IMG/VR virus record: IMGVR_UViG_3300016478_000046
Location: 1 to 28,869 of that record
Origin: a virus
Lineage: Duplodnaviria > Caudoviricetes
Strand: one strand, 5' to 3'
DNA: 28,869 nucleotides
In this document: positions 5,980 through 22,507 of the stretch, one piece after another
Position numbering within the stretch: position 1 is the first letter of the stretch
Layout: every line of letters starts with the position of its first letter
Position numbers and translations under genes: made by a program
Notes under the pieces: model-generated
The model's database searches: none
The model's input: only the letters and a program-made list of their open reading frames with translations
Told to the model about the DNA's origin: nothing

Positions 5980-6291
5980 TTAAAATGGTTCGTATTCTTT
6001 AATACACGAAACCACTTCGCTATTTGCTGCTAAAGCCTCTATTGATGTAGAGGCAAATTCTAACCATATCTTATCGAAGTATAATCCATTGGGGAACTCA
6101 TCCACTTCAACAACAATCCCGTTGTCCGAGATATATTTTACTCTAAATGTCGTACCTTTGTCAACAGGTACTCCGTTTACATTTAATCCGTAAAGACACA
6201 ACGGAATATTGTGTTTGGTTTTTGTAGGCAATTTTAAGTGTTTTATGTTAGCAAATGCTACACGGTCTCCGATCTCAATTTCACTGAACAT
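5980..6291 (-). CDS. hypothetical protein (SH3-like IGDRV N-terminus)
   Basis: ATG 6291 with GGAGGTGA SD; TAATG overlap with the upstream gene. Confidence 0.75.
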   Translation of the reverse strand: MFSEIEIGDRVAFANIKHLKLPTKTKHNIPLCLYGLNVNGVPVDKGTTFRVKYISDNGIVVEVDEFPNGLYFDKIWLEFASTSIEALAANSEVVSCIKEYEPF

Positions 6292-6880
6292 TATTTCACC
6301 TCCCATTTCATCATTGCATTAAATAACCTTGAATCTATTTCTGATTGCCATTTTAGAGCTAATTGTTTACAAAGTGCTTCTTTAAGTGGTTTGTACACAT
6401 TAAAGGCTTCTTCTGCTGTGTTGAACAAACCTAAGTATTGTCGCTTACCGTTTACAGCGCAAGATGCCATAAACTTACTACTGTGTTTATGAAAACAAAC
6501 ACCTAAATGGTATTCCCCTCTAGCGTTACCATGCTCGTTGAAAAACGAGTTTATCTCTCGCGGCACAAAAACGCAAGTGGTTTCAGAATATATCTTATTG
6601 TCAACAATCAACAAATCCTTATCTAATTGCCAACTTCTTCCTTTTTCATCAACCTTTCCAAAACCAATCTGTTTTTGACACCAGTCATAGAAGAATGTGT
6701 AATTAAGAAAGTTATCAGATACAGAACAACCTTTGTAGGTTGGTTGATGTGTTTGATACTTTTCACTAAAACAGCGTCTTAACATACCATTCCACAAATC
6801 GTATTCTTTAACATTTTTACCATCAACATAAGTAGGTCTTGTTTTATCGTTAAAACAACACCCCATACTAATTTACTCAT
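6291..6880 (-). pseudogene. HNH-like (DKD)/AP2 endonuclease, copy 1, with a 1-nt deletion in codon 9
   Basis: ATGAGTAAATTAGT start at 6880 is identical to copies 2 and 3; GGT GTT G-T TTT AAC lacks one G relative to copy 3; the remainder is intact (ORF 6291..6866). Confidence 0.85.
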
Positions 6881-6920
6881 CTCTAACTCCAAATATTACC
6901 AACACATCTTTAATGTACAA

Positions 6921-6951
6921 TGTATGTGTTGTATCCCGTACAACACATACA
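6921..6951. repeat. perfect 13-bp inverted repeat (hairpin)
   Basis: TGTATGTGTTGTA-TCCCG-TACAACACATACA. Confidence 0.9.
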
Positions 6952-6996
6952 AATCTACTTACAGCACGATTGTTACTTTCTTTGGCATGGTATCAC

Positions 6997-7572
6997 CTAC
7001 ACCCTTAAAGAACAAACAAGACCATCAAAACACCATTCACCAATATCTGTATCTTTCGGCAATAACATACGAGCAGTTTCTTTTTTGCTAGAATGCTCTA
7101 TACACCAATGCCCTGTATTTTTCTTACAACCTAAATCTTTAGCCACCTTAACAAACTTATACAACAGTTCTAAGTCATAAGAGTTAGCATTTCCGTCAGG
7201 CGTTACATTAGACCACAACAAACGATAAAAGTCAGGGTATTTCGCATCACAAGCCGTAAACCGTATGTCATTAACTGTATAGCTAATTACTCTGTCGTCT
7301 CTTGTTTTATCAAAACTAAATGCAAGTGTGCTTGTTTTATACAGTGTACACAAATTAACAACATCTGCTTGTTCTATAATTAAGCTAAAATTAGGTAGAT
7401 TTATGTTTTTATACAATCTACCAAAAACATGGCCATCTGTTGCCACAAGATTAAGCTCATTATCTTTACAAATAATAGCAACACCTTGAAGGTATGTTCT
7501 TACATCTTTCTTTGCTGAAAGATTTGATAAAGCCTTTAAAAAGGCTGTTTTAATTTCAAACTCAATACTCAT
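6997..7572 (-). CDS. DNA polymerase III beta-clamp-like protein (short phage version)
   Basis: DVRTYLQGV, LVATDGH and YPDFYRL resemble the DnaN central domain. Confidence 0.8.
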   Translation of the reverse strand: MSIEFEIKTAFLKALSNLSAKKDVRTYLQGVAIICKDNELNLVATDGHVFGRLYKNINLPNFSLIIEQADVVNLCTLYKTSTLAFSFDKTRDDRVISYTVNDIRFTACDAKYPDFYRLLWSNVTPDGNANSYDLELLYKFVKVAKDLGCKKNTGHWCIEHSSKKETARMLLPKDTDIGEWCFDGLVCSLRV

Positions 7573-7754
7573 CTCATCACTCCTAATATAACCAACATAT
7601 CTCTAATATACACATGAAATGTTGTTGTTCGTACAACACCTGTCCGTTTATATAATTCCTCAGCTATTTGCCAAACAGTGCCTGTCTCCCACTCTAAGTG
7701 TTTCAAAGCAATATCCATTGTTTGAATACACTCTTGTTTAGTCATTTTAATCAC
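7569..7754 (-). CDS. small hypothetical protein
   Basis: Overlaps both neighbours by 4 nt; GAGG SD. Confidence 0.65.
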   Translation of the reverse strand: MIKMTKQECIQTMDIALKHLEWETGTVWQIAEELYKRTGVVRTTTFHVYIRDMLVILGVMR

Positions 7755-7972
7755 CTCTTGTTAGATTTTGAAAGATATTCTGTCTGCATAGACAACATCT
7801 TTTGGTATGCTTCTTTGTTTATTGGCAAACCATAAGCGTCATGACTCACCATGTGGTAGTGATAGCCACAAAAATAACCACTAATACCAAAGTAATTATT
7901 CAAATGCCAATGTTGGCTATCATGCTTACAATCGTTATTGTTTATACAGCAATAGCGCATAAAACACCTCAT
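7751..7972 (-). CDS. small Cys/His-rich hypothetical protein (start may be the ATG of MRYCC)
   Basis: First ORF after a promoter; GAGGTG SD precedes the second Met. Confidence 0.65.
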   Translation of the reverse strand: MRCFMRYCCINNNDCKHDSQHWHLNNYFGISGYFCGYHYHMVSHDAYGLPINKEAYQKMLSMQTEYLSKSNKR

Positions 7973-7996
7973 CAGCTTTGTTAAACAATGTAATAG

Positions 7997-8025
7997 ATTT
8001 TATCAGACCTCTTACATTGCGTCAA
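7997..8025 (-). promoter_or_regulatory. sigma70-type promoter
   Basis: TTGACG-17bp-TAAAAT; CAATGTAA/TTACATTG inverted repeat (7986-8019) flanks the -10. Confidence 0.75.
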
Positions 8026-8031
8026 TAGGTT

Positions 8032-8937
8032 TTATAAAGATTCTTCTCGATATAGTGGTTTTGCCAACAAGTTTTTCGGAAGTTGTTTACCAAAATCAGC
8101 ACCCATCTTGTCGTAGGCACAAGCAAATTCTCGCACATTACACACCTTGACGATTAGCTTTTCTGTAATGTCATAGACAACATATTTGTCATTCTCAAGT
8201 GTGATACAGCGTAAAACTGGCTCACCATTTCTACCATCCATTTTGAATTTACTATAGATAGGGTGTTTGTTTAGTCGGTGAATCATCTTCATTAGACTAG
8301 CCTGTTTTGAGCTTTCCAGATATACTCTATCCCTGTCCTCGTACCCATTAAGGTACACAATATTGTGTCCACGATAGCTTAAATCCCTGTACATTGCAAA
8401 ATCTGGATTAGTCTCCAATAAACACTTATAAACCTCATCTTTCAGTTTAATTCTACTAGGATGAACACCTGATACCCTCTCATAAACAGAGTTTTTAACA
8501 TCAAAAGTTTTGTCACCAAATGGACAACCAACTTGTGTTAGTAACAATCTTGTGTCAGAGGTAAACCGCAGACCATTTATCTTACAACTCAAACCTAATT
8601 TTTCACCTATTGCCACCAACTCATCAAGGAAAGGCGCAACAAATGTTCTTCTACCACTATTACCTCTTAGGTTGGCAACAGGTTGGTATCTCATTATGTA
8701 TGCACTTTCTTTTTTCAAAGCATCTTGTTCAGAGAGTGGTCTTTCTTGTATAACGACTTCTACATTCTCGTCTCCGAGCATTGCGCCTCTGTAGTATATT
8801 TCGTTTAATAGTTTATTTTGACTAACTCCGCTTCTTGCGTGTTCAAACCTATCGTTTTTACCACAGCCGATGTACACAATAATACCTCTATACTTAACAA
8901 AATATACATAGTGTTTCTTTTCTTCTTCTGTTTTCAT
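8032..8937 (-). CDS. GIY-YIG domain protein
   Basis: YVY...VYIGCG..DRFEH...ESAYI..YQP.AN pattern at the N-terminus; AGGAG SD. Confidence 0.75.
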   Translation of the reverse strand: MKTEEEKKHYVYFVKYRGIIVYIGCGKNDRFEHARSGVSQNKLLNEIYYRGAMLGDENVEVVIQERPLSEQDALKKESAYIMRYQPVANLRGNSGRRTFVAPFLDELVAIGEKLGLSCKINGLRFTSDTRLLLTQVGCPFGDKTFDVKNSVYERVSGVHPSRIKLKDEVYKCLLETNPDFAMYRDLSYRGHNIVYLNGYEDRDRVYLESSKQASLMKMIHRLNKHPIYSKFKMDGRNGEPVLRCITLENDKYVVYDITEKLIVKVCNVREFACAYDKMGADFGKQLPKNLLAKPLYREESL

Positions 8938-8968
8938 ACTCTATCTCCTGAAATTAAAATAAGTCAAA

Positions 8969-10216
8969 TTATTCGTCACTATTCAACCACTCAATAAACA
9001 AGTTTCTCATACGTTTACTCAAGAAGTAAATAGTAATTGGTTTACCATTGCGTACAGCACTTCTAAATACCCATTGCACAAGCTCTGCTGTTGCATAAGC
9101 ATCTCTGTCAATATCAAACCCGTAATCCTTTAAATAAACCTCAACAGGCATAGTGGGATAACGGTTATAAGCATGACACAGTACGTTTTTGTGTGCAAAG
9201 TCGTTAGTAGCTCTAGCAGAACTATAAATCCAACAAGTGTTAGGTGTTGACTTACCTTTAATTGTGGAGGGATAGTCTCTGATTCTAGCATTAACAGCAC
9301 CATTGGCTTTACAAACAAATGATTTAGGTGTTGTAAACATAAATACTTCTGCACCTTCCGATTGGTCTCCACACCACCTAATAGCATTTACAATTACTTT
9401 CTTATCATCTTGAGTAGCATTCTTATACCAAGAATAACTAAGTGCTAGTCTATCTAATTGCTTCAAATCCCTGTGTTCACCAACAGTAATAAGTTTTCTA
9501 AGACCATCTTTTACTTGAAGGTTACAAGGTTTAAAACCATCATACTTAACACGTTTTATATCTTTTAGTGCTAAATACCCATCAAGAATAGAGCCATCAA
9601 ACATATAAGTACACAGTATTACTCTTTCTGCTGCTGTAACTAAACCAATAGGTAAATGAATAGTTAAAAGCTCTTGTTTTCGTTTTGATGAGAACAACAC
9701 ACCAATGTCGCATAGCTGTTTTAGTTTAAGAAACACACTTTCTTTCTTGTGTTTCAACTTATCAAGGTCATCGTCAACCCATTTAACAGCACCTAAATTA
9801 TCTTCATCAGATACAATCATTCCTTTAATGAAAGCCATTTCTATATCACCCATCCTTACACCAATATCACTATCAACTAAATTGACTTCCTCGTCAATGA
9901 TTAGTATATATTTGTTTAACTCGACTTGTTTGAGATGTTCCTTTGTCATCTTACGAAACAAGGAGTGCGTACAAGAAATGTTTTTACCATTAGTTAATAA
10001 TTCTAATAGATTGTCACTTTTAGTTGCGTCATCTGTCACCTCTGGTTGATGAAAGACTGATGTCTTGATTGTATTAGGTACTCTTTCGTGTACCTCAGTT
10101 AGTAAAGGTGTTACATAAATGTATTTTTGTTGTGGATTGTTATTAATGTAGTTAAAGATGTGTGAACTCTTTCCGCTACCACAAATAGCATCTAATACTT
10201 CTACTGTATCTGTCAT
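8969..10216 (-). CDS. SF2 helicase-like / putative origin-binding protein
   Basis: Walker A DAICGSGKS, YVTP, THSLF, Walker B IIDEE, ELVQWVFRSAVR. Confidence 0.8.
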   Translation of the reverse strand: MTDTVEVLDAICGSGKSSHIFNYINNNPQQKYIYVTPLLTEVHERVPNTIKTSVFHQPEVTDDATKSDNLLELLTNGKNISCTHSLFRKMTKEHLKQVELNKYILIIDEEVNLVDSDIGVRMGDIEMAFIKGMIVSDEDNLGAVKWVDDDLDKLKHKKESVFLKLKQLCDIGVLFSSKRKQELLTIHLPIGLVTAAERVILCTYMFDGSILDGYLALKDIKRVKYDGFKPCNLQVKDGLRKLITVGEHRDLKQLDRLALSYSWYKNATQDDKKVIVNAIRWCGDQSEGAEVFMFTTPKSFVCKANGAVNARIRDYPSTIKGKSTPNTCWIYSSARATNDFAHKNVLCHAYNRYPTMPVEVYLKDYGFDIDRDAYATAELVQWVFRSAVRNGKPITIYFLSKRMRNLFIEWLNSDE

Positions 10217-10249
10217 ATTGTCACCTGTTGTTTGTTAATTTAAGAACAT

Positions 10250-10277
10250 ATAATACCATACTTTAGGCATTTTACAA
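10250..10277 (-). promoter_or_regulatory. sigma70-type promoter (leftward)
   Basis: TTGTAA-16bp-TATTAT with extended TG. Confidence 0.6.
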
Positions 10278-10299
10278 GTAATTCTTATGGGAATTATAA

Positions 10300-10630
10300 A
10301 TATAACGGAATCGCTTGTAAGTGGTTGTTTTTATTGAAGAAAAATCGAATTTTGGCGCAAATAACGCCTAACAATACCTAAAACAACCTAATTTAAACAC
10401 TAATTGTATTCTATCAACACCTAATCACTTGTGTATAAGATACAAGAAATCAAAGAAAATAGCACACCTAAGAACAACTAAAATATGTGTTTTTATACAA
10501 GAAATAAAGGAAAAGTAGCAACTTTTACAATTTTCCCTAATAGAGAGTAGCACACCAAAAAATAGCACACATAGCCATTACTTTATCCATTTGTACCCAT
10601 TTCTTGTTCTTTTAGATAATGTATTGTCTT
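10300..10630. repeat. repeat-rich non-coding region, candidate replication origin
   Basis: CCTAA at 10367/10377/10387/10420; ATACAAGAAAT at 10440 and 10495; TAGCACAC at 10460/10548/10563; located where gene orientation diverges. Confidence 0.55.
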
Positions 10631-10663
10631 TCCAACAAAACAAATAATTATTTATGTATTGTG

Positions 10664-10692
10664 TTGACAAAGATAAAACAATCAATTAAGAT
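10664..10692 (+). promoter_or_regulatory. sigma70-type promoter (rightward)
   Basis: TTGACA-17bp-TAAGAT. Confidence 0.85.
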
Positions 10693-10739
10693 ATGTCTCA
10701 GGCAGGTACATTGTGTTGTTTTATTAAGAGGTAAAAGAA

Positions 10740-11159
10740 ATGTCCATACCTAATCATATTGGTGTTAATAAAGCCAAGCTAAAAGAAAAAAACATCACAA
10801 ACAACATGACTGATGTTGAATTTGATGCTTATTGTGCTAAATCTTACCTAAGTAAGATGCAATCTTGTCAACAAAGAGGTATAGAGTTTAAACTTAATTT
10901 CACTTCTTTTAAGAACTTGATGAGAGCTAAGAAGTGTTATTATACAGGTGTAACACTTACTAGAGGTGGTGGACAAGAAAACAATCCTAATTACTTAACA
11001 ATAGATAGAATTGATAATAAACTTCCGTACCAGAAAGGTAATGTTGTTGCTTGCTGTACCAAAGCTAACCAATTAAAAGCATTGGTTGAGAATAGCGGTA
11101 TGACAATGAAACAAGCATTTAATGTGTTTAAGAAAACTGTAGAAAGAGGTGTATTGTGA
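10740..11159 (+). CDS. HNH-like protein resembling the T4 Srd family
   Basis: RGIEFKL...CYYTG...TIDRIDN...Y..GNVVACC..ANQLK. Confidence 0.7.
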   Translation: MSIPNHIGVNKAKLKEKNITNNMTDVEFDAYCAKSYLSKMQSCQQRGIEFKLNFTSFKNLMRAKKCYYTGVTLTRGGGQENNPNYLTIDRIDNKLPYQKGNVVACCTKANQLKALVENSGMTMKQAFNVFKKTVERGVL

Positions 11160-11347
11160 ATCTATCCCTTAACTACGTACGTGGTGCTAACAATACAATC
11201 AGTGTAGTTGACAAACAAAACGTGTATTTGTGCAGTATCGTTATAAATCACTTTGGCATGATAGCATTTGAGCAAGAACGTGTTTTGACAATCATTGAAC
11301 AGCAAGAGATACGTCATGTTTGTCAAAGATTACAACAAGTGGTATAG
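11156..11347 (+). CDS. small hypothetical protein
   Basis: GTG start overlapping the upstream stop; GAGG SD. Confidence 0.7.
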   Translation: MNLSLNYVRGANNTISVVDKQNVYLCSIVINHFGMIAFEQERVLTIIEQQEIRHVCQRLQQVV

Positions 11348-11355
11348 GTGATAAA

Positions 11356-11952
11356 ATGAGTAAATTAGTTTACGGTGTTGCCGTTAACGATAAAACAAGA
11401 CCTGCTAAGGTTGATGGTAAAATGGTTAAAGAATACAAACTGTGGGAAAGTATGTTAAGACGCTGTTTTAGTGAAAAGTATCAAACACACCAACCAACCT
11501 ATAAAGACTGTAATGTTTCTGATAACTTCTTAAGCTACAGTTGCTTCTATGATTGGTGTCATAAACAAACAGGTTTTGGTAAGGTTGATGAAAAAGGACG
11601 TTGTTGGCAATTGGATAAGGATTTGTTATTCATCGGTAACAAAACATATTCCGAAACAGCTTGTGTTTTTGTGCCACAAGAGATAAACTCGTTTTTTACT
11701 GACAGAGGAAACAACAGAGGTGAATACCCTGTAGGTGTTGGTTTTTACAAACGATACGGTAAGTTTGTGGCACATTGTAATGTAAACGGTAAACGACAAC
11801 ATCTAGGTTACTTTAACACACCACAAGAAGCCTTTGCTGTTTATAAAACATTTAAAGAAAACCTGTGCAAACAATTAGCTTTAAAATGGCAACCTGAAAT
11901 TGACGAAAGACTATTTAATGCAATGATGAATTGGGAGATAAACCATGACTAG
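11356..11952 (+). CDS. HNH-like (DKD)/AP2 endonuclease, copy 2
   Basis: MLRRC...PTY..C.VSDNF...WQLDKD...CVFVP.EIN; GV.F.K...HLGYF..PQEA; start at ATG 11356 by alignment with the other copies and AGGTGA SD. Confidence 0.88.
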   Translation: MSKLVYGVAVNDKTRPAKVDGKMVKEYKLWESMLRRCFSEKYQTHQPTYKDCNVSDNFLSYSCFYDWCHKQTGFGKVDEKGRCWQLDKDLLFIGNKTYSETACVFVPQEINSFFTDRGNNRGEYPVGVGFYKRYGKFVAHCNVNGKRQHLGYFNTPQEAFAVYKTFKENLCKQLALKWQPEIDERLFNAMMNWEINHD

Positions 11953-12967
11953 ACTGTGTTATGATTTCGACACCGTGAAGTATGCCGTTGGGTTCTCATC
12001 AGAGAACAGATATATAATTGCAACAAACAAAATCACAGGTAACTCTTTAACATTAAAGAACAGAACAGCTTTGAAAGAACATCTTGAGGCTTTTAACGCT
12101 AATCGTGAATCACCATTGTTGGCGTCAGAGTTTGACATACAAGACATACAAGAGGCGATGAGTGCTGATGTTGTTTCTAAGATACTAAATACCACAATTA
12201 CCAATATCATGAAGCATTTAGGAGCAAAAGATATATATGGGTATATCGGTCAAGGTAAGGTGTTTAGACATGACATCGCTAAAATACGACCATACAAAGG
12301 TGGTAGAAGTTCTTTAAAGCCTGTCAATCTTCCCTTGATTGAAGAAATGCTGTTAGAACGCTTTAATGCTAAGATTGCTACAGACAATTTAGAAGCAGAT
12401 GATTTCTTGTCTATTGATAGCTATACTGCATGGAAAGATTGGTCTAAAACTAAGCATCAAAAAGATAGGTTGATTGTTGTGACAGAAGATAAAGATGCTT
12501 TGCAATGCGGTGGTAGTCATTTGTTCAATCCAACAAAGATGACATTACCATTCACAATTAAGAATGAGCTTGGTGAAGTGAGTTTAAGAGATGACACAAA
12601 GGCTAAAACTATCACTGGGTGGGGACGTAAGTTTCTTTACAGCCAGCTATTGTTAGGCGATAGTGTTGATAATTACTCCCCTACTGCTTTGGTATATAAA
12701 GATAATCCTCATAAAAGGTTCGGTGATGTTGTTTGCTTTAATTTATTAAATAAATTAAATACAGATGAAGAGTGTTTAAAAGCTATTGTTGAGCAGTACA
12801 AGAAATGGTATGCTACGCCTGTCACATTCACAAGCCATGATGGGAATGAATACACCTACACATGGTTAGACGCAGCTAACGAAATTTGGACTTTAGCTCG
12901 AATGAAACGATTTGTAGGTGATGATGTGACGTTTGGCGAAGTGTTAAATAAGTTTGGTATTATTTGA
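11945..12967 (+). CDS. 5'-3' exonuclease (T7 gp6/FEN-like)
   Basis: YDFD, FR....YKG.R, EADD, DKD and GDSVDN acidic motifs. Confidence 0.88.
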   Translation: MTRLCYDFDTVKYAVGFSSENRYIIATNKITGNSLTLKNRTALKEHLEAFNANRESPLLASEFDIQDIQEAMSADVVSKILNTTITNIMKHLGAKDIYGYIGQGKVFRHDIAKIRPYKGGRSSLKPVNLPLIEEMLLERFNAKIATDNLEADDFLSIDSYTAWKDWSKTKHQKDRLIVVTEDKDALQCGGSHLFNPTKMTLPFTIKNELGEVSLRDDTKAKTITGWGRKFLYSQLLLGDSVDNYSPTALVYKDNPHKRFGDVVCFNLLNKLNTDEECLKAIVEQYKKWYATPVTFTSHDGNEYTYTWLDAANEIWTLARMKRFVGDDVTFGEVLNKFGII

Positions 12968-12975
12968 GGTGAATT

Positions 12976-13191
12976 ATGAAAAAGTATTATGTTGCAGAGG
13001 TGTTAGATTGGAACAATGGCACTGTTCGCAGGATAAGTCCAATCTTTGATAGCTATGAAAAGGCTATGGAGTGGGACGCGCCAGATGAATATTCTGATGA
13101 ATGTTTGGTAACTGTTTCTCTACAAGACACCGACATTGTAGAACAAGACACACAGAGTATGTGGGTGTCTGTTAAGGACTGGAGAAAATAA
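12976..13191 (+). CDS. small acidic hypothetical protein
   Basis: GAGGTGA SD; operon context. Confidence 0.7.
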   Translation: MKKYYVAEVLDWNNGTVRRISPIFDSYEKAMEWDAPDEYSDECLVTVSLQDTDIVEQDTQSMWVSVKDWRK

Positions 13192-13494
13192 ATGAAAACA
13201 CATACAATTTATCGTAAACCAAATTCTAATGACTTTGGGAGTCAACCTACATTTGTCGATAATGACATAAGTGTTGTTGGCCTTATTGAAGTAACAATGC
13301 AACAACATAAGAACAGGTGTGGTTTATTCGTTGGTAGTAAAGATGTGATGTATTACCGTGAGTTTAGAGCAGTTGACAACAGTTTTAAGCACATTGAGCG
13401 TTGTGAAGATTGGTTTGAGAACATTGCTTTGAGTTGGGAAGATGTTACGATTTCTTCATTAGAAGCCTGTGATTTTAAACGTGTAGATGCTTGA
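13192..13494 (+). CDS. hypothetical protein
   Basis: GGAG SD; abuts the upstream stop. Confidence 0.7.
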   Translation: MKTHTIYRKPNSNDFGSQPTFVDNDISVVGLIEVTMQQHKNRCGLFVGSKDVMYYREFRAVDNSFKHIERCEDWFENIALSWEDVTISSLEACDFKRVDA

Positions 13495-13519
13495 CAATAA
13501 CATTCCTTTCAATTATGAT
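13491..13519 (+). promoter_or_regulatory. sigma70-type promoter upstream of denV
   Basis: TTGACA-17bp-TATGAT. Confidence 0.85.
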
Positions 13520-13552
13520 TCTCTCATTCTAAACAAGTGAGAGAATATCAAT

Positions 13553-13951
13553 ATGACTCGCATTAACACTGTTCCTATTCAAGAACTAACAAATCAACAT
13601 TTATTAGCTGAATATAAAGAGATTGTGCGGCCATTCTCTTTGGTGCGTAATGCACAAGCTAAAGGTGTCAACAAATATAATCTCCATTCTAAATACAAAG
13701 TACCAAGTGAATATACATTGGGTACAGGCCATGTCTTGTTCTTTTATAACAAGCTATCCTATCTTCTAAAGCGTTATAATGCTCTGCAACAAGAGCTTAT
13801 TGTACGAGGCTATAACATCAATCCTGTAGCAGATAAAGACCTTACTGACGGTATTAGAAGCGAATGGTTTGGTGATTATGAGCCTACACAAGATGCTTTA
13901 GCTATCAATCGTGAACGTATTGCTAAAAGATTAAGTGGAGATAAAACATGA
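13553..13951 (+). CDS. denV: pyrimidine dimer DNA glycosylase / endonuclease V
   Basis: MTRIN...L..QHLLAEY.EI.R...LGTGHV.FFY.KL, as in T4 endonuclease V (catalytic Thr2 and Glu). Confidence 0.95.
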   Translation: MTRINTVPIQELTNQHLLAEYKEIVRPFSLVRNAQAKGVNKYNLHSKYKVPSEYTLGTGHVLFFYNKLSYLLKRYNALQQELIVRGYNINPVADKDLTDGIRSEWFGDYEPTQDALAINRERIAKRLSGDKT

Positions 13952-14218: not shown

Positions 14219-14250
14219 TAGCAGCATACAAAGTAAAGAGAGGTGAAATT

Positions 14251-14585: not shown

Positions 14586-14806
14586 AAACATTTGACATCT
14601 ACTTGACACAATACGGTGTTACTGTTAGTGTGGGTGTACACAGTCCTAATGCTGTTATCACTCCTTACGATATCTCTATAGAGAGTGTTAGTAAACACGG
14701 TAAAGAGGTGAAGCGTACATGGTGGGAATCTATTAATGAGAATGTCTTGTACGATGTTCTCACTAAAGAAGTTAATGATTTGATGTATAATTTGAGAGGT
14801 AATTGA
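14582..14806 (+). CDS. hypothetical protein
   Basis: ATGA overlap; GGTGG SD. Confidence 0.7.
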   Translation: MKTFDIYLTQYGVTVSVGVHSPNAVITPYDISIESVSKHGKEVKRTWWESINENVLYDVLTKEVNDLMYNLRGN

Positions 14807-14807
14807 T

Positions 14808-14999
14808 ATGTTAGCTGTTTCTGTTGTTTTAGCAATTATGTTGTCTGTAATTGCGTTTGTAATGTTCTTTAAAGATTTATACAAGATGTTTAAAGAACCT
14901 AGTTTTAAAACATTCAAAGATATTTGTTTTAGTGCTGTTGTGTTTGTGTTCTGTACGTTTTATGCTAATGTTTCTTTGTTGCTGCAAGAGGTGGTGTGA
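14808..14999 (+). CDS. small membrane protein (2 TM)
   Basis: Two hydrophobic stretches; GAGGT SD. Confidence 0.7.
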   Translation: MLAVSVVLAIMLSVIAFVMFFKDLYKMFKEPSFKTFKDICFSAVVFVFCTFYANVSLLLQEVV

Positions 15000-15232
15000 T
15001 GTACACAGAATCATGCCATTCATGTGGTAAAGATGGACTTAAACGAGAGAATGGTAGTTTGTATGAGTTTAATGGTTGGTTACATTGTTGCGGAACAACT
15101 CCAGCTAATCGTAGAGTAAACTACTATAGTAGTACACAATTATCAACAAACTATGATTTTGATAACAGTATTGAGTTTTTAGATTTAAGTAGAGAGACAC
15201 AACATGATTACACAACACATTACAATGACTAA
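14999..15232 (+). CDS. small protein with CxxC...HCC (possible Zn finger)
   Basis: CHSC and LHCC; GAGGTGG SD; start is ATG 14999 or GTG 14996. Confidence 0.65.
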   Translation: MYTESCHSCGKDGLKRENGSLYEFNGWLHCCGTTPANRRVNYYSSTQLSTNYDFDNSIEFLDLSRETQHDYTTHYND

Positions 15233-15452
15233 TTTAAAGATTGATAAATCTTCTTGTAAATATACAGCAAAGCTATTGCACACTAAAAGTATTTTTGGTA
15301 GAGTATATAGCACAAACAATGTGCTTGTAAGTGGTTTTGCTACAGCAAGTGACGTTAAAGTGAATGATACAGATGGTGTCATTAGTGACAAACCTATCTG
15401 TCGTCAACAAGTGTTAAAGGCTGTTAAAGAACAGTATAAGTGCTTCATTTAG
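15204..15452 (+). CDS. hypothetical protein (start 15204 or 15225)
   Basis: Operon context. Confidence 0.6.
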   Translation: MITQHITMTNLKIDKSSCKYTAKLLHTKSIFGRVYSTNNVLVSGFATASDVKVNDTDGVISDKPICRQQVLKAVKEQYKCFI

Positions 15453-15481
15453 TGTTTATGTTTATTTAGAGGTGAATTAAA

Positions 15482-16129
15482 ATGGCTATTTATGAAAATA
15501 AGTTCGAGATTGGTGATAAGGTTGTTGTCACAAACAAAATGCATTGTTTTGACATTTGGCTAGATATGGCTTCTGTAATGGAAGTTAAAAACTTTTCAAA
15601 TGCTTGGCCTGATGAAAGAGAAGTCCACAAGGTTATCTCTTACACACTGCAGCCTAAAACAAACCAATTCATTTATCATGTAAAAAACTGTGTTACAGAA
15701 CAAGGTTATCTGATGCTAGAAGAAGGTCTTGAGCTTTACAATGGACAGGATAAAGAAAAAGTGGAACAATCGCCAAAACAACAATACAAACAACGGGCTA
15801 AATGGGTGATGAATACAGGTAGTAAACCTGATTTACCTGATGGTACATTAGTAAAGGCAGTTTTCGATGAAGGTGGTGTTATTGCGGAGGTTGACAAATT
15901 ACGTTGGTCTATTGCTGACCACATATGGCAAACAAACATAGTTAAATGGAAATTAGCAGACGATTGGAATAAGGTAGTTAATGGACAAGCTCCTGATATT
16001 GATGGCGATACATTGGTTGATATTAAATGGGTTGATGGAGAAATTCACAAAGACTATCACATGAGAACTGTTGTAGGGTGGCCTGATGTCAAAAAGTGGC
16101 GTTATGCTAAAGAGAAGAAAGCTAAATAG
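15482..16129 (+). CDS. hypothetical protein: SH3-like N-terminus plus two W-rich repeats
   Basis: KFEIGDKV; repeats W...G..PD....LV....G...VKW(K/R); GAGGTGA SD. Confidence 0.8.
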   Translation: MAIYENKFEIGDKVVVTNKMHCFDIWLDMASVMEVKNFSNAWPDEREVHKVISYTLQPKTNQFIYHVKNCVTEQGYLMLEEGLELYNGQDKEKVEQSPKQQYKQRAKWVMNTGSKPDLPDGTLVKAVFDEGGVIAEVDKLRWSIADHIWQTNIVKWKLADDWNKVVNGQAPDIDGDTLVDIKWVDGEIHKDYHMRTVVGWPDVKKWRYAKEKKAK

Positions 16130-16139
16130 CTGTAAAATG

Positions 16140-16168
16140 TTGACAAACAGACAAGGATGTTATTTAAT
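16140..16168 (+). promoter_or_regulatory. probable sigma70-type promoter for the primase-helicase
   Basis: TTGACA-17bp-TTTAAT (imperfect -10). Confidence 0.5.
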
Positions 16169-16196
16169 TTATTTAAATAATTTAATGAGGTGAATG

Positions 16197-17978
16197 ATGA
16201 GTAACGAGAACGGTTTGTTCGTAAAACATACAAATTGTCCTGCTTGCGGAAGCAAAGACAATTTAGCTTTATATGTACACGAAACAGAAAATGGAGACAT
16301 ATACAGTGCCTATTGTTTTGGTGGGGATTGTGGCTCTAGTTTTAAGCACGAACAATTACTAGAGGAAGGTATTGTCAAAAAAGAAGATGTTGTGGATAAA
16401 GAAAGCATCAAGAAGAAACAACGTCAGAAAATCACCAAAGAAGAACAACGTGCATTGTTTGCTAAAACAAGCTATTCTGGTATTAACCAGAACGATGCCA
16501 CAATGTATAGAAACTTAAAAGACGAATATCTTGAGTTTTACAGACATCGTTTTGAGAGAGATGCAAAAGGAAACATTGTATGTGTTTATTATCCTGAAAC
16601 AGAAGATGGCGAATTGCAAGGGTATAAAACTCGTGTACTGCCTAAGATTTTTGGATTAAAGAACATTGGTAAAACAGGATTGTCAAATGATTTATCAGGT
16701 CAGCACTTGTTTACCAAAGGTAAGAATTTACTTATTGTTGGTGGAGAGGAGGATAAGGTAGCTGCTTATCAGATGTTGCGGGAGTATCAGAAATCAAGAG
16801 ATAAAGATGATTACGATGCTGTTGCTGTGGTATCACCTACTTGCGGAGAAGGTAGTGCTGCAAAACAAGTAGCTGCACAATATGACTTCTGTGACAACTT
16901 TGAAAACATCATTGTTATGATGGATAATGACAAAGCAGGTCATGTTGCATCAAAAGAGATTGCGGCTGTATTACCTAAAGAAAAAGTTAGAATTGCTTTT
17001 ACATCTCTGAAAGACCCTTGTGAAATGTTAAAGCAAGGTAAGGATAAGCAATTTATCGCAAATTTCTATGATGCTAAGCCTCTTGTTAGCACAGGTATCA
17101 AGACATCTAAAGATGCTGATGCTGAAATGGAGATTGAGTTAAGTAGACCAAAGATTCCTTTGCCTCCTTTCATGAACAAGTTACAAGAGTTGATGTGTGG
17201 TGGCATTCCGTTAGGGTATATCATCAATCTTGGCGCACAGACAGGAGGGGGCAAAACTTCGATTGTCAACGAAATGATATATTATTGGATTTTCAATAGC
17301 CCTCACAAAATCGGAGTTGTATCTTTAGAACTTACTGCAGGTCAATATGCCATTGCTATGTTAAGTCGGCATATAGGTAAGAAGATTCAGTTGATACAAG
17401 ACCCAAAAGAAGCCATTGCGTTTGTTCAGCAAGATTGGGTAAAAGCTAAACGCAAAGAACTGATGGAGAACGAGTATGGTGAAGAACGATATACTATACT
17501 AGATGAACGAGATGGTAGTTTAGAGTCTGTTAAGTTACAGATTAACAAGTTAATCAAAAAACACGATTGCAAGTTGATTGTATTAGACCCTGTAAATGAC
17601 TTGTTTGAAGGAAGTAACTTAGAGCAGCAAACAGACTTTATTAAATACCTGAAACTAATCATCAAAGATGGTATTTCTGTGCTTAACATTTGCCATTTGA
17701 CAAAAGGCAAGACAGAAACAGACAAAGAAGGAAACCGCAAGGTAAGGAAGCTAACAGAAGATGATTTTGCTGGTGTTTCAAATTTGGTCAAGTCGGCAGG
17801 TTGTAATATCTTTGCTACTCGTGACAAATACGCTGAGGATGAATACGAGAGAAATACAACGCTCGTTGAAGTGCCGAAATGTAGATGGACAGGTAAAACA
17901 GGTTATGGTGGTGAATGGTTTTATGAAATTGAAACGCATACGATGTATGACAAAGATGACTATTTTATGAAACATTGA
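16197..17978 (+). CDS. DNA primase-helicase (T7 gp4-like)
   Basis: Zn finger CPAC..CF..DC; TOPRIM GEED/DNDKAG/KDPCE; Walker A GAQTGGGKT, SLE, LDP, HL, KCR; start 16194 or 16197. Confidence 0.95.
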   Translation: MSNENGLFVKHTNCPACGSKDNLALYVHETENGDIYSAYCFGGDCGSSFKHEQLLEEGIVKKEDVVDKESIKKKQRQKITKEEQRALFAKTSYSGINQNDATMYRNLKDEYLEFYRHRFERDAKGNIVCVYYPETEDGELQGYKTRVLPKIFGLKNIGKTGLSNDLSGQHLFTKGKNLLIVGGEEDKVAAYQMLREYQKSRDKDDYDAVAVVSPTCGEGSAAKQVAAQYDFCDNFENIIVMMDNDKAGHVASKEIAAVLPKEKVRIAFTSLKDPCEMLKQGKDKQFIANFYDAKPLVSTGIKTSKDADAEMEIELSRPKIPLPPFMNKLQELMCGGIPLGYIINLGAQTGGGKTSIVNEMIYYWIFNSPHKIGVVSLELTAGQYAIAMLSRHIGKKIQLIQDPKEAIAFVQQDWVKAKRKELMENEYGEERYTILDERDGSLESVKLQINKLIKKHDCKLIVLDPVNDLFEGSNLEQQTDFIKYLKLIIKDGISVLNICHLTKGKTETDKEGNRKVRKLTEDDFAGVSNLVKSAGCNIFATRDKYAEDEYERNTTLVEVPKCRWTGKTGYGGEWFYEIETHTMYDKDDYFMKH

Positions 17979-18003
17979 CATTAGACGGAATGTATTGTAC
18001 AAT
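17975..18003 (+). promoter_or_regulatory. sigma70-type promoter
   Basis: TTGACA-17bp-TACAAT. Confidence 0.88.
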
Positions 18004-18010
18004 ACATTCC
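17987..18010. repeat. perfect 24-bp palindrome over the -10 box
   Basis: GGAATGTATTGT|ACAATACATTCC. Confidence 0.92.
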
Positions 18011-18030
18011 TGTTTGTTATGAGGTGAATT

Positions 18031-18624
18031 ATGAGTAAATTAGTTTATGGTGTTGGTTTTAACGATAGAAGCAGACCTGTTTTTGTAAATGGTAAACGCG
18101 TCAAAGAATACGCTTTGTGGTATAGCATGCTAGAAAGATGTTTTAGTGAGAAGTATAAAATATGTTATCCAACCTACAAAGGTTGTAATGTTTCTGATAA
18201 CTTTTTGTACTACAGCTACTTCTACGATTGGTGTCATAACCAAATAGGTTTTGGTAAGGTTGATGAAAAAGGACGTTGTTGGCAATTGGATAAGGATTTG
18301 TTATTCATCGGTAACAAAACATATTCTGAAACAGCTTGTGTTTTTGTGCCGCACGAGATAAATTCGTTTTTTACTGATTGTGGTGCTAAAAGAGGTGAAC
18401 ACCCTTTGGGTGTTCATTTTCACAAGGAGAGTGGTAAGTTTAAGGTACAATGTGCTGTAGACGGTAAACCAAAACATTTAGGTTACTTCACCACACCTGA
18501 AGAAGCCTTTACCGTTTACAAACCATTTAAAGAAGCATTGTGTAAACAATTAGCTCTGAAATGGCAATCAGAAATTGACACACGATTATTTAATACAATG
18601 ATGAATTGGGCAGTCAAAGAATGA
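18031..18624 (+). CDS. HNH-like (DKD)/AP2 endonuclease, copy 3
   Basis: Colinear with copies 1, 2 and 4; GAGGTGA SD. Confidence 0.88.
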   Translation: MSKLVYGVGFNDRSRPVFVNGKRVKEYALWYSMLERCFSEKYKICYPTYKGCNVSDNFLYYSYFYDWCHNQIGFGKVDEKGRCWQLDKDLLFIGNKTYSETACVFVPHEINSFFTDCGAKRGEHPLGVHFHKESGKFKVQCAVDGKPKHLGYFTTPEEAFTVYKPFKEALCKQLALKWQSEIDTRLFNTMMNWAVKE

Positions 18625-20741
18625 AAAAATATATCTACGATATTGAATCCTACCCGAATATATTCACGTTCTCTTATGTTTCTGATGACAACAACGAAAA
18701 GCAGACATTTGAGATTTCATTCAGAAAGAACGAAGTGGTTGAATTGTTTGCTTTTCTTGATGATTGTCACAACAAGCGTTGTTTTCTTATTGGCTTTAAC
18801 AATGTTGGGTTCGATTATCCTGTGCTGCACAAGCTAATTAAGATGAGAAATAACATTCCCAAGAATGGTGTTACTATTGCCAAAAAGATGTATCAATATA
18901 CACAAGAACAGATTGAATCTTTTAATGGTGAGTTTCCAAACACAGTAAAGGAATCAGAAAGATATATTCAGCAGATTGACTTATTCAAAATACATCATTT
19001 TGACAACAAAGCTAGGTCAACAAGTTTGAAAATGTTAGAGTTTAATATGCGTTCTAATAACATTGAGGACTTACCTTTCAGTGTTGGCAAAGAGCTTACT
19101 TCTGACGAATGTGATGTGTTAATCAAATACAACGAACACGATGTACAGATGACAAGAGCTTTCTATCTAAAATCATTAGATATGATTAGCTTTCGTGAGA
19201 AGCTAACAGAAAAGTATTGTCGTAACTTCTTAAACCACAATGACACAAAGATTGGTAAAGACTACTTCATTATGAAGTTAGAGGAATCAGGTGTCAAAGT
19301 GTATAAAGAAGATGATAAAGGTAGACGAGTGATGAATCAAACAAAACGCTCGTGCATTGATATTGGTAAATGCTTGTTTGACTATTATGACTTTGAATTA
19401 CCAGCTTTTGTTGCTATCAAAGAATGGTTTGCTAAACAGAAGATACAAGAGACAAAAGGTGTATTCACGGATATTGAAGAACACTTACTTGGTGATGTTG
19501 CCAAGTATGCCGAGATGTCAATTAGTAAGAAGAAGTTTAAGACAGAGCCTACTACTTCTGAAATTGAGCAATTCAAGAAAGAACACCCTCTTGGGTGGAT
19601 TGACAAGGTAGAGCTTAAAGCTAAAAAGAAAGGCGAAACACAATACAGTTATTGGGGCTGTTGGAAAGTAGCAGAAACACTAAATGTTGTTGTTAATGGT
19701 TTCAGATATGATTTTGGTGTTGGTGGTATTCACGGTAGTATTAGCAACAAGATAGCTCACAGCAATAAGAGATACATTCTTGTTGATGCGGACGTTTCAT
19801 CATACTATCCTAATATGGCTATCTCTAACAATGTTTATCCTGAACATTTAGGTACTAGATTCTGTTCTATCTACAAAGATATGTACGAACAACGTAAGTC
19901 TTATGACAAGAAGTCTGCTGAAAATGCAATGCTTAAACTAGCTTTGAATGGTGTGTATGGTGATAGTAACAACAAGTTTAGTCCGTTCTATGACCCTGCA
20001 TACACAATGAAAATCACAATCAATGGTCAATTATCTTTGTGTATGCTTGCTGAAAAGCTATTGTCTATCGAAGGATTACTCGTTGTACAGATTAACACAG
20101 ACGGTATCACTGTTGCATTACCTCGTAATAAACGAGAGCAATATGATAAGATTTGTGCAGATTGGCAATCTACTGTTAAATTGCAGCTAGAGTTTGCTGA
20201 ATACGAGAAGATGTTTATTCGTGATGTGAACAATTACATTGCCTTGTATTCCAATGGTAAGACAAAAAACAAGGGTTGTTATGAATATGGTAAAGAAGAT
20301 GATGGTACACCAAACCATTTGAAATTAGGGTGGTCTAAGAATCATTCGTCTTTAGTGATTCCGATGGCTGCTGAGGCTTATATGCTACATGGTAAAGATG
20401 TCAGAGAGTTTGTTACGTCACACAACAACATCTATGATTTTATGCTTCGTACTAAAGTACCTCGTAATAGCAGATTAGTCATTGTTGATGGTAACGGTAT
20501 TGATGTTCCACAACAGAACATTTGTCGTTATTATCCTTGTAAATCAGGTGGTAAACTGGTTAAGATCATGCCACCTTTACAAGAAGGAGGAGATGAACGT
20601 AGATTGTCTATTGATAGTCAATGGAATGTTACCACTTGTAATGACATTAACGACTTCAAAGGTGATATTGACTATGATTATTATGTTGAAGAAGCAAATA
20701 AATTAATCATAACTGTTGACACATCAAACAAAACAGTTTAA
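18621..20741 (+). CDS. family B DNA polymerase with 3'-5' exonuclease
   Basis: ExoI YDIE, ExoII FN..FD, ExoIII YN.HDV; DVSSYYPN, KLALNGVYG, NTDG; start reassigned to ATG 18621. Confidence 0.93.
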   Translation: MKKYIYDIESYPNIFTFSYVSDDNNEKQTFEISFRKNEVVELFAFLDDCHNKRCFLIGFNNVGFDYPVLHKLIKMRNNIPKNGVTIAKKMYQYTQEQIESFNGEFPNTVKESERYIQQIDLFKIHHFDNKARSTSLKMLEFNMRSNNIEDLPFSVGKELTSDECDVLIKYNEHDVQMTRAFYLKSLDMISFREKLTEKYCRNFLNHNDTKIGKDYFIMKLEESGVKVYKEDDKGRRVMNQTKRSCIDIGKCLFDYYDFELPAFVAIKEWFAKQKIQETKGVFTDIEEHLLGDVAKYAEMSISKKKFKTEPTTSEIEQFKKEHPLGWIDKVELKAKKKGETQYSYWGCWKVAETLNVVVNGFRYDFGVGGIHGSISNKIAHSNKRYILVDADVSSYYPNMAISNNVYPEHLGTRFCSIYKDMYEQRKSYDKKSAENAMLKLALNGVYGDSNNKFSPFYDPAYTMKITINGQLSLCMLAEKLLSIEGLLVVQINTDGITVALPRNKREQYDKICADWQSTVKLQLEFAEYEKMFIRDVNNYIALYSNGKTKNKGCYEYGKEDDGTPNHLKLGWSKNHSSLVIPMAAEAYMLHGKDVREFVTSHNNIYDFMLRTKVPRNSRLVIVDGNGIDVPQQNICRYYPCKSGGKLVKIMPPLQEGGDERRLSIDSQWNVTTCNDINDFKGDIDYDYYVEEANKLIITVDTSNKTV

Positions 20742-20744
20742 ACT
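20716..20744 (+). promoter_or_regulatory. sigma70-type promoter within the polymerase 3' end
   Basis: TTGACA-17bp-TAAACT. Confidence 0.75.
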
Positions 20745-20796
20745 ACTACGCATGGACAAGCAACAATGTTTGTCCTAATTTGACAAGAGGTGAAAT

Positions 20797-21024
20797 ATGG
20801 TTATGATTGATATTAGAGCAGGTGACACTGCAAAGATTGACAGCATCCAATTTGCGGATGATTCTGCCTCAGCTAGTTTTGTAACTTTAAACAGTTATAG
20901 GCCAAGCGAGGTATGTTTGTATGATTTTGATGAATGTGGTGTTAGTAATATCTTTATCAGCGACATTCCAAACCTAATCAAAGCATTAGAGAAAGCGTAT
21001 GAATTATGGGGAGAAAAGAAATGA
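20797..21024 (+). CDS. hypothetical protein
   Basis: GAGGTGA SD; C-terminal DIPNLIKALEKA helix. Confidence 0.75.
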   Translation: MVMIDIRAGDTAKIDSIQFADDSASASFVTLNSYRPSEVCLYDFDECGVSNIFISDIPNLIKALEKAYELWGEKK

Positions 21025-21170
21025 GCATTAACTACGATTGCGAGTTATACCAAAAACTGTTCAAAGACATTACAAGGAAACGTGCTTATCAAGGTGCTAA
21101 AAGAGTGTTTAAGCGTAGGCAGAAAGAGCGTAATAAATGGAAAAGGTATAACACGAATACATTAAATTAA
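21021..21170 (+). CDS. 49-aa highly basic protein
   Basis: GGGAG SD; ATGA overlap; read manually (MSINYDCELYQKLFKDITRKRAYQGAKRVFKRRQKER...). Confidence 0.65.
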   Translation: MSINYDCELYQKLFKDITRKRAYQGAKRVFKRRQKERNKWKRYNTNTLN

Positions 21171-21184
21171 TTTAATTAAATGTC

Positions 21185-21212
21185 TTGACAACACAGAAAC
21201 CTGTGGTACAAT
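21185..21212 (+). promoter_or_regulatory. sigma70-type promoter for SSB
   Basis: TTGACA-16bp-TACAAT with extended TG. Confidence 0.85.
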
Positions 21213-21282
21213 ATATCCACAACGTACACATTGTTTAGCCGACATTGTGTATTATCTCAACGTCTAATTAGGAGACAACGTA

Positions 21283-21864
21283 ATGGCTAAATATACCCAA
21301 GAGACTATTACTGGTACTTTATTGTATGTTTGTATTCAACAACCAACTAAGAAGTATGAGAGTGACGAGACTGAATGGAAAGTGTCTTTAGTAATTGACA
21401 AGAAACAAGCTAAAGAGTGGAACAAGCGTTTTAGCAAACAAAAAGCTAAAGAAATTGACAACGCTGAGTTTGAGAACGTCTATAAGATTACACCGCCTGT
21501 AGATGGTCAAGATGAACAATACGTGATTAAGATTAGTCAAAATACGCATACATCTGATGGTAAAGAAATGTATCAACCAAAAGTGTACCAAGACATAGGA
21601 GCAAACAACGTTGTGGAGATTACAAACACCAAACTGGTTGGTAATGGCAGTCTTGGTTCTGTGAGTTATACTGTTGTTGAAAACAAGTTTGGTACTTTTG
21701 CGAAGTTAAATGCGCTATTGGTTACTGATTTGATTGAGTACCAGAAAACAGGGTCAAACCCGTTTGGGAAGCACGTGGTTACAGGTACAGTGGTTAATAA
21801 AGAAGCTGTTGCTGTTAAGCAAGATGCCGTGATTGATGAAGATGACGACTCACTTCCTTTTTGA
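21283..21864 (+). CDS. single-stranded DNA-binding protein (T7 gp2.5-like)
   Basis: VGNGS.G...L.A..V.DLIEY core; acidic tail DEDDDSLPF; replication context. Confidence 0.85.
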   Translation: MAKYTQETITGTLLYVCIQQPTKKYESDETEWKVSLVIDKKQAKEWNKRFSKQKAKEIDNAEFENVYKITPPVDGQDEQYVIKISQNTHTSDGKEMYQPKVYQDIGANNVVEITNTKLVGNGSLGSVSYTVVENKFGTFAKLNALLVTDLIEYQKTGSNPFGKHVVTGTVVNKEAVAVKQDAVIDEDDDSLPF

Positions 21865-21907
21865 TAATTAACGAAAAGCACAAGGACGTGCTTACAAGAG
21901 GTGAATT

Positions 21908-22507
21908 ATGAAAGAATTAGTGTGGGGTGCAGGTTTTAATGATGGGAGTAAACCATCATACGATGGCAAGAAGATTCTTAAAGAATACAGTTTGTGGCAA
22001 GATATGTTAAGACGATGCTTTAGTGAAAAGCATCAAACACTTTACCCAACTTACAAAGGTTGTAATGTTTCTGATAACTTTTTGCACTATTCATTCTTTT
22101 ATGACTGGTGTCAAGAGCAAATAGGTTTTGGTAACATTGATGAAAAAGGACGTAGTTGGTGTTTAGATAAGGACTTGTTATTCGTTGGTAACAAAACATA
22201 TTCTGAAACAGCTTGTGTTTTTGTACCATCACAGATAAACGTGTTTTTCACTGATAGTGGAGCTAAAAGAGGTGAATACCCTGTAGGTGTTTATTTTAAC
22301 AAAGAGAGTGGTAGGTTTATGGCATATTGCAACGTAAACAGCAAACGACAACACTTAGGGTACTTCAACACATCACAGGAAGCCTTTGCTGCATATAAAC
22401 AATTTAAAGAAGCATTGTGTAAGCAATTAGCTTTAAAATGGCAACACGAAATTGATTCAAGACTATTTAACGCAATGATGAATTGGAGTGTAAGTTATGA
22501 AAATTGA
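21908..22507 (+). CDS. HNH-like (DKD)/AP2 endonuclease, copy 4
   Basis: Colinear with copies 1-3; GAGGTGA SD. Confidence 0.88.
   Translation: MKELVWGAGFNDGSKPSYDGKKILKEYSLWQDMLRRCFSEKHQTLYPTYKGCNVSDNFLHYSFFYDWCQEQIGFGNIDEKGRSWCLDKDLLFVGNKTYSETACVFVPSQINVFFTDSGAKRGEYPVGVYFNKESGRFMAYCNVNSKRQHLGYFNTSQEAFAAYKQFKEALCKQLALKWQHEIDSRLFNAMMNWSVSYEN

Follow-up and report, generated by a model that had tools for sequence, protein, structure and literature searches.

How does one gene come to occupy four places within 29 kb of a single virus genome, each time immediately ahead of the start codon of another gene, and what allows it to settle there? This question is raised by a 28,869-nucleotide stretch of DNA from a tailed-phage genome (positions 1-28,869 of IMG/VR record IMGVR_UViG_3300016478_000046; Duplodnaviria, Caudoviricetes), hereafter referred to as the window, in which four copies of a nuclease-like gene, termed the cassette, are interspersed among replication genes. 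Judged from sequence comparison, the cassette is a real, mobile, and highly expanded subclade of an already described family of predicted free-standing homing endonucleases. The reading regarded here as probable is that a subclade of the IPA-HNH class, ending in a Trp codon and found at at least 12 gene junctions, spreads likely by homing and likely exchanges bodies between its copies.

Four Copies of an IPA-HNH Gene

Copy 1 (site A) lies on the minus strand at 6291-6880, while copies 2 (site B, 11356-11952), 3 (site C, 18031-18624), and 4 (site D, 21908-22507) lie on the plus strand. A search of the window's own genome returned exactly four copies, and their alignment is nearly gapless, as an earlier note on this DNA had described, its sole indel being one base missing from codon 9 in copy 1. 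An internal ATG of copy 1 (6866) is in frame with the rest of the gene, and a product of 191 residues without the first five is possible. Copies 1, 2, and 4 share 70-75% protein identity with copy 3. Copy 2 overlaps the exonuclease ATG at 11945, copy 3 is located between the primase/helicase gene and the DNA polymerase gene (ATG 18621), and copy 4 lies 3' of the gene for single-stranded DNA-binding protein (SSB) and overlaps an ATG at 22497, in agreement with the core replication neighbors named in the earlier note. All copies are optional genes outside introns and inteins that adjoin essential genes. That note had also seen no terminal repeats, intron, or transposase, which is borne out: no terminal repeats, including inverted ones, common to the four loci were found, the window yielded no target-site duplication and no Rfam RNA or intron, and no transposase was matched in Pfam, PHROG, or NCBIfam. 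An intron or RNA element, considered as a candidate, was rejected for lack of an Rfam match.

Toward the 3' end of each copy, a TGG (Trp) codon is found at 6305-6303, 11932-11934, 18607-18609, and 22484-22486 in copies 1-4, followed by the next ATG after spacers of 11, 10, 11, and 10 nt, respectively, the 10-11 nt previously reported. In copy 3 this junction (18607-18623, plus strand) consists of the Trp codon, the 11-nt spacer, and the polymerase ATG, with equivalents at 6305-6289, 11932-11947, and 22484-22499 in copies 1, 2, and 4. The spacing exceeds chance, since a TGG stands 8-11 nt upstream at only 4 of the 34 other starts in the window. The homology had been thought to stop at the Trp codon; it in fact runs two codons further, as W-x-[V/I], with V or I at the +2 position in 105 of 109 matched proteins (120 examined).

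The copies are assigned to phrog_953 ("HNH endonuclease") in PHROGs, with E values below 1e-65 for PHROG HNH families. Copy 3 resembles two proteins of phage ICP1, namely gp209 (35% identity over 186 aa, E 6e-36) and gp59 (28% over 195 aa, E 1e-18), which, according to Barth, Dunham and Seed 2023 (PMC10448857), are founders of the IPA-HNH class, to which gp115-116 also belong. On these sequence matches, the four genes are members of this described family. The family is widespread, as tblastn located 2298 places in 1532 of 50,697 isolate phage records, every one of them below 60% identity. No biochemical study of the IPA-HNH family was found in the open-access literature, most subscription papers lying outside that scope.

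Filled, Empty, and Replaced Sites

Across viral and metagenome loci, 28 full copies were labeled at 12 sites (A-L), which include capsid, terminase, ribonucleotide reductase, thyX, and ligase junctions. The most informative comparison is with the closest relative (loci L030, L134, and L007), whose polymerase is 97% identical to that of the window. Sites B and C are both filled in it, and at site A it shows the beginning of a copy; site A is also filled in L057 and L065. At site B its copy likewise precedes the exonuclease, but the upstream genes differ. At site D it has no copy 4, and an unrelated 124-aa gene occupies the same Shine-Dalgarno (SD) sequence and ATG. In addition, it carries copies in two slots (23523 and 7572) where the window has other genes. 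The first, site E (23523-23693, plus strand), contains a 56-aa open reading frame in the window, and both this frame and the relative's cassette start with GTG GGT. The second, site F (7560-7600, minus strand), is the start of a 191-aa gene at 7572, where a cassette is present in L134 and L060 and a clean empty allele in L065. At site G (724-1260, minus strand), a 170-aa gene after ribonucleotide reductase takes the slot that a cassette fills in L055, L056, and L065, while site H (5560-5610, minus strand; a MazG-like gene and a thyX-like start at 5586) is empty in the window and filled in L058. Two comparisons thus look like clean insertions at a start codon, L134 against L065 at site F and L058 against the window at site H, and sites B, D, E, and G show replacement by another gene, which accounts for the majority of alternative alleles.

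The presence of the gene in relatives at at least 12 junctions, with empty or replaced alleles, supports the view that the cassette is mobile, repeatedly and recently, as had been proposed, rather than a set of old paralogues. Stable paralogues fixed at four positions since distant ancestry would find some comfort in the primase-polymerase slot, which holds a member of the family's Tyr-ending clade in phage TaPaz and a distant family member in L034. Nevertheless, the positions are not syntenically fixed: in the closest relative, where the polymerase is 97% identical, another gene stands at site D and cassettes occupy E and F, and the synonymous divergence (dS) between sites, 0.45-0.72, is no larger than that between strains. 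Largely refuted by the filled and empty pairs, this explanation is scarcely credible.

Contigs from sequencing runs give a similar picture of the boundaries. In 4 of 4 runs aligned to copy 3, contigs depart from the window at 18030-18031 and at 18609-18610, the former in keeping with the 5' boundary at the start codon that had been noted earlier; many different flanks meet the cassette at these two points, and flank agreement is low, 0.53-0.64, where several contigs were pooled. An ATG stands 10 nt past the Trp codon in the pooled sequence 3' of copy 3 in two of the runs. Run X5 has contigs with the end of a cassette ahead of the window gene at 13192 and with the beginning of one after the exonuclease. 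Joints skipping any of the four window copies were absent among 15 listed of 89 joints and among the 9 listed in the runs aligned to copy 3, which does not establish that none exist. Among distant loci, an upstream homologue was found at 1 of 20 polymerase loci and 0 of 6 exonuclease loci; the exonuclease scan returned only the closest relative and six homologues of about 30%, and no relative came up when viral sequences were scanned with the 103-aa gene.

As for the origin of the window itself, the virus record that holds it is 31% complete, and the best matches of its polymerase in phage records are 54-62% identical (Caudoviricetes sp. MW202701, Limnohabitans phage DC31, and Curvibacter phage P26059A). 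Runs containing this polymerase come mostly from freshwater or wastewater, and a scan of prokaryotic genomes yielded one contig of a metagenome-assembled genome and pointed to no host.

The 3' End as a Predicted Shine-Dalgarno Sequence

Among distinct copies of the close Trp-ending clade, 17 of 30 have a start codon 8, 10, or 11 nt past the Trp codon, as do 3 of 8 more distant Trp-ending copies (20/38 for all Trp copies). No such start follows in any of the 26 copies of the Tyr-ending clade; in 24 of these, a tail of exactly six residues leads to the gene's own stop. In a manual tally that takes each downstream gene once, a short-spaced copy precedes 10 of 15 neighbors. For the remaining 13 close Trp copies, the next start is 22-41 nt away or the cassette faces a terminator, so that the earlier note, which had the cassette "always" in a translation-initiation region, went too far. 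The Tyr-ending clade is probably ancestral, judging from its wider spread; the tree is not rooted on it.

The proposal that the Trp codon begins the SD of the downstream gene fares better. Computed against an anti-SD sequence, the predicted pairing of the 17 short-spaced copies averages -7.6 kcal/mol and falls to -2.6 kcal/mol when a Tyr codon replaces TGG, with a mean of -6.4 kcal/mol at the 34 other window starts. Most of this predicted pairing is given by the W-[E/S]-V codons, which read TGGGAGGT or TGGAGTGT, and these codons are therefore predicted to double as the downstream SD at many sites, though not at all. Selection on the SD was also sought in codon usage; GAG outnumbers GAA after Trp in short-spaced copies (7 vs 3) and not in long-spaced ones (2 vs 4), counts too few to support such selection. 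Overlap as such is ordinary in the window: among 32 gene pairs that do not involve a cassette, 12 overlap or adjoin. Separately, L067 (2670-2745) carries a tandem duplication of about 40 nt that spans the cassette end, the SD, and the first codons of the next gene.

Breakpoints at Start Codons

Comparison of the window with 13 close loci shows that 25 of 52 homology ends, some of which are mere alignment drop-offs, fall within 15 nt of a start codon, against a background of 6%. Away from cassettes, 19 of 42 do likewise, which indicates that breakpoints at start codons are not special to the cassette; optional genes such as 22718-23020 and 10740-11159 are gained or lost from start codon to start codon. 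In 6 of 8 comparisons, the first 5-7 nt counted from the start codon are common to the cassette and the resident gene, an observation made post hoc that suggests crossover at short homologies. The pattern at translation-initiation regions (TIRs) is accordingly read as a general route of recombination plus survival, in which the built-in SD would raise the number of tolerated sites.

The earlier note had viewed the TIR as a landing target, and a stronger form of this idea holds that the protein itself directs an ATG-to-TGG unit to the SD and start codon, possibly via a covalent tyrosine intermediate. The sharp 5' boundary at the ATG and the clean insertions at sites F and H are what such a cassette would leave behind, and the empty F site reads GAATTGGGAG, resembling the cassette end. 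In L059, an SD-ATG motif (14/15 nt) is repeated on either side of site D, its 13-nt core also occurring at three starts in the window. A chemical route is conceivable as well, given an invariant Tyr98 in a weakly PacI-like fold and the account in PMC5714182 that the Tyr of PacI-type enzymes may be a nucleophile. Against this, the spacing is absent in 13 of 30 copies, genes other than nucleases break at the same points, alternative alleles are mostly replacements, junction spacers are unequal between filled and empty alleles, and the four loci and their genes offer neither terminal repeats nor a transposase family match. The boundaries are likewise less exact than an ATG-to-TGG unit implies: clean at F and H, they include a 3' breakpoint 58 nt inside the next gene where copy 4 is compared with the closest relative. 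Dedicated targeting of TIRs is therefore distinctly improbable.

Bodies Independent of Site

If each slot kept its own lineage, copies at the same site should be most alike. A core set of 21 copies, which leaves aside the hybrid L060, one near-duplicate, and the copies at capsid and terminase junctions, shows otherwise for the body (nt 49-528), with identities of 0.774 for same-site and 0.782 for different-site pairs (p=0.90). The last 51 nt (529-579) differ in this respect, at 0.875 vs 0.813 (p=2e-4). In three copy sets and two labelings, the 3' end tracks the 3' neighbor in every case (p 5e-4) and the 5' end its 5' neighbor (p 0.001-0.02); for the body, no link to either side is seen (p 0.09-0.73). 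Since body identity ignores the site while both ends follow their neighbors, the middle of the cassette is likely swapped by recombination between copies, with the ends staying in place. Additionally, pairs with 93-99% identical 5' flanks have cassettes only 76-83% alike (99% vs 76% in L063/L064; 93% vs 78% in L030/L054), a test of the pairwise homoplasy index type supports recombination (p=0.008), and in L060 the sequence to the left of the cassette is that of site F and the sequence to the right that of site A. The part likely exchanged includes the AP2 region (nt 367-480), where identity is 0.758 for same-site and 0.762 for different-site pairs; same-site copies being no more alike, the slot does not predict the specificity residues, and site-specific AP2 alleles were rejected.

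Much of this could also arise without exchange, from a rapid radiation in which diverse homing variants repeatedly overwrote slots and entered through conserved ends. The tree is star-like, the best 120 clusters (the query itself aside) are all 74-80% identical to copy 3, and interchange of homing endonuclease genes (HEGs) at fixed slots has been described (PMC10448857), TaPaz and Acinetobacter phage B9 indeed holding different HEG classes between primase and polymerase. The intragenic recombination signal argues against such a history, as does L060, whose combination of flanks is as expected from a crossover between two copies; radiation alone is considered unlikely.

Predicted Domains and Active Site

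The protein is predicted to consist of two domains. The C-terminal one is an AP2-like DNA-binding domain (18397-18561, plus strand, approximately residues 123-177 in copy 3) with hypervariable beta-sheet positions. Pfam AP2 matches 3 of the 4 copies under the curated cut-off, sequence searches of the PDB return weak AP2 matches only, and the modeled domain superposes on 2gcc (Z 6.0, root-mean-square deviation (rmsd) 2.0, 56 aligned). Of seven positions aligned to the base-contacting residues of AtERF1, five rank within the 30 columns, out of 193, that vary most (p ~0.001).

The N-terminal domain has no Pfam HNH match in any copy, being too divergent for HNH_3, and no nuclease match in a PDB sequence search, while profile comparison with the other HNH genes of the window aligned only the AP2 part or nothing. 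Its predicted fold in copy 3 is confident (AlphaFold2, pLDDT 94). In a structural search, the best match is PacI, a weak one (Foldseek E 1.2), with further weak matches to colicin DNases, TagI, and McrA; re-alignment among 59 chains gives Z 5.2, rmsd 3.5, 87 residues, and 15% identity for PacI, which scores Z 3.9 in a wide search with the full model, and ESM Atlas matches are all below 0.9. The predicted nuclease motif, D87-K88-D89...N95..Y98...N111 (18289-18363, plus strand, in copy 3), is invariant in 120 of 120 proteins except for D/E at position 87, with Lys at position 88 in place of the catalytic His by which canonical HNH_3 and I-HmuI-like enzymes are recognized. A loop Tyr stands in for His in PacI-type enzymes (PMC5714182), which makes Tyr98 a candidate catalytic residue by analogy.

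An absent His, a weak fold match, and promoter-overlapping palindromes 5' of some copies may also be taken to mean that these proteins only bind DNA, being catalytically dead or domesticated, and that they are carried along passively as dispersed repeats or serve in regulation or against competitors. Conservation of D/E87, K88, D89, N95, Y98, and N111 throughout the 120 proteins speaks for a retained active site instead, and the frameshifted copies (copy 1; site E in L030) together with patchy presence fit selfish turnover, making loss of catalysis very unlikely. The ratio dN/dS is 0.24-0.36 in 11 pairs of copies.

A Model for Spread and Diversification

Combining these observations, spread of the Trp-ending subclade by homing may be envisaged as follows. 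The protein would cut or nick a cassette-free allele in a co-infecting phage, and repair would copy the gene into the same slot, a step drawn from knowledge of the family. New slots would be reached where start codons and SD motifs offer short homologies for recombination, as with other optional genes, and only insertions at non-disruptive junctions would survive, a mechanism that would account for the observed pattern. In place of the fixed tail and stop seen in the Tyr clade, the subclade carries a predicted SD for a start 8-11 nt further on, a portable signal that is predicted to let more junctions tolerate the cassette; overlap with the downstream gene also predicts translational coupling. 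Finally, copies about 78% alike would recombine across sites, exchanging the middle, including the base-reading face of AP2, while ~50 nt at either end remain with the adjacent genes and the flanking modules are reassorted.

Several points weigh against this reading. Cleavage, homing, and expression are all deduced from sequence, and the predicted nuclease has Lys for the HNH His. There are only two clean insertion pairs, of which that of L058 has just 14 nt of 3' flank, and short metagenomic contigs of a repeat family can be mis-assembled chimeras. Same-site copies are not independent, which inflates the Fisher test of Trp-to-start spacing between the Trp and Tyr clades (p 3e-6), and copy 3 and three other short-spaced copies are weak in SD pairing (-3 to -5 kcal/mol). 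When all 28 copies are included, a slight link appears between site and identity over the whole cassette (p ~0.01), and it vanishes once one near-identical pair is dropped. The incompatibility signal flattens past ~25 nt and could partly reflect homoplasy, and a rapid radiation could also give the star tree, because same-site cassette dS values of 0.53 and 0.69 are within the range of orthologous flank genes (0.27-0.92).

A bolder and rather unlikely extension would make the subclade a self-diversifying selfish system in which a His-less Tyr nuclease, a portable SD, and swapped recognition faces act together, in its extreme form with covalent Tyr insertion at TIRs. If true, such a system could enter almost any operon without polarity, acquire new specificities, and reassort phage modules. 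The routes by which HEGs reach new sites and specificities are usually inferred from few divergent copies, and the Trp subclade offers hundreds of close copies with filled, empty, and replaced alleles. It makes testable whether the SD-creating C-terminal change from Tyr to Trp widened the range of tolerated sites and whether recombination between copies reprogrammes AP2 specificity, and it provides a concrete active-site hypothesis for the family, with Lys and Tyr replacing His.

Flanking Elements and Neighboring Genes

Upstream of copy 3, in the flank and not in the cassette, a sigma70-type promoter match (11/12; 17975-18010, plus strand) has a 24-bp palindrome or terminator-like stem over its -10 box; the closest relative has a different stem in the same place, also with TACAAT inside. 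A perfect 13-bp hairpin (6921-6951) lies 5' of copy 1, in a flank common to relatives, near a remnant (6957-6983, minus strand) of a 105-aa gene; L007 and L065 retain this gene whole, and in the window it was apparently deleted between short ATCG homologies.

Three further optional genes resemble nucleases, either in their family match or in a motif: a canonical HNH_3-AP2 gene (4350-4967), a 301-aa gene (8032-8937) without a family match, GIY-YIG-like by eye and skipped in an X5 contig, and a 139-aa phrog_3118 gene (10740-11159) absent from the closest relative. The primase/helicase (16194-17978) is a different allele in that relative (L030:7622-9346), with the switch exactly at the ATG, and in L054 a different gene, polymerase-like from its first codons, follows the site C cassette. 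Between primase and polymerase, phage B9 (L171:1764-2834) has an unannotated 356-aa gene that reads as a putative T5orf172-type HEG with repeated Cys/His modules. At 10200-10750, the GC skew changes sign where transcription diverges, marking a candidate origin or terminal region.

Comparison with Known Systems

The cassette shares with described IPA-HNH HEGs near-full-length homology, the LDKD motif, an atypical N-terminal HNH-like domain joined to a C-terminal AP2, and location near polymerase, ribonucleotide reductase, terminase, and capsid genes (PMC10448857). The same article describes HEG clustering at essential genes and shows recombination between HEGs for T5orf172; the words "ribosome", "overlap", and "microhomology" do not occur in its main text. 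The present subclade departs from these relatives in being multi-copy (four in 29 kb at 70-80% identity), in lacking a fixed stop, in often encoding the next SD, and in having a body independent of site. Within the open-access literature, which leaves out most subscription papers, no account was found of a HEG whose last codons form a downstream SD, or of end-anchored body exchange in HEGs. A 3' coding end that serves as the predicted SD of the next gene and site-independent bodies appear to be undescribed features.

The seg and mob HEGs of T-even phages are also free-standing, optional, and near essential genes, with overlaps and suggested translational coupling; however, their overlap is with the upstream gene and has been read as limiting endonuclease expression (PMC2988022), whereas the present cassette overlaps the downstream gene and supplies its predicted SD. 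Multiple copies of variable number and place, some of them degenerate, are known for the I-HmuI-like HNH genes of Skunavirus (11 positions; PMC12724721) and for the HNH-AP2 genes of Xanthomonas phages Xp10, OP1, and Xop411 (PMC2248197). Both groups of enzymes keep the catalytic His (PMC12724721, PMC2248197), and 14 of 15 Skunavirus HNH clusters map to one location each, four locations holding several clusters (PMC12724721), unlike the present bodies, which are not sorted by location.

PacI (His-Me finger group 20; PDB 3ldy/3m7k) is the best nuclease match and likewise has a conserved loop Tyr and no catalytic His, but the match, compared at the level of the whole domain, is middling (Z 5.2, 15% identity), and PacI is a restriction enzyme without AP2. 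In its effect on the genome, the cassette resembles the PeSL cassettes of phages RB49 and phi1, dispersed repeats at which recombination shuffles neighboring gene modules (PMC2839356). PeSLs are non-coding promoter/terminator units (PMC2839356), while the repeat here is a 590-bp protein-coding gene whose upstream elements differ between copies, so that the two are alike only in the way they work.

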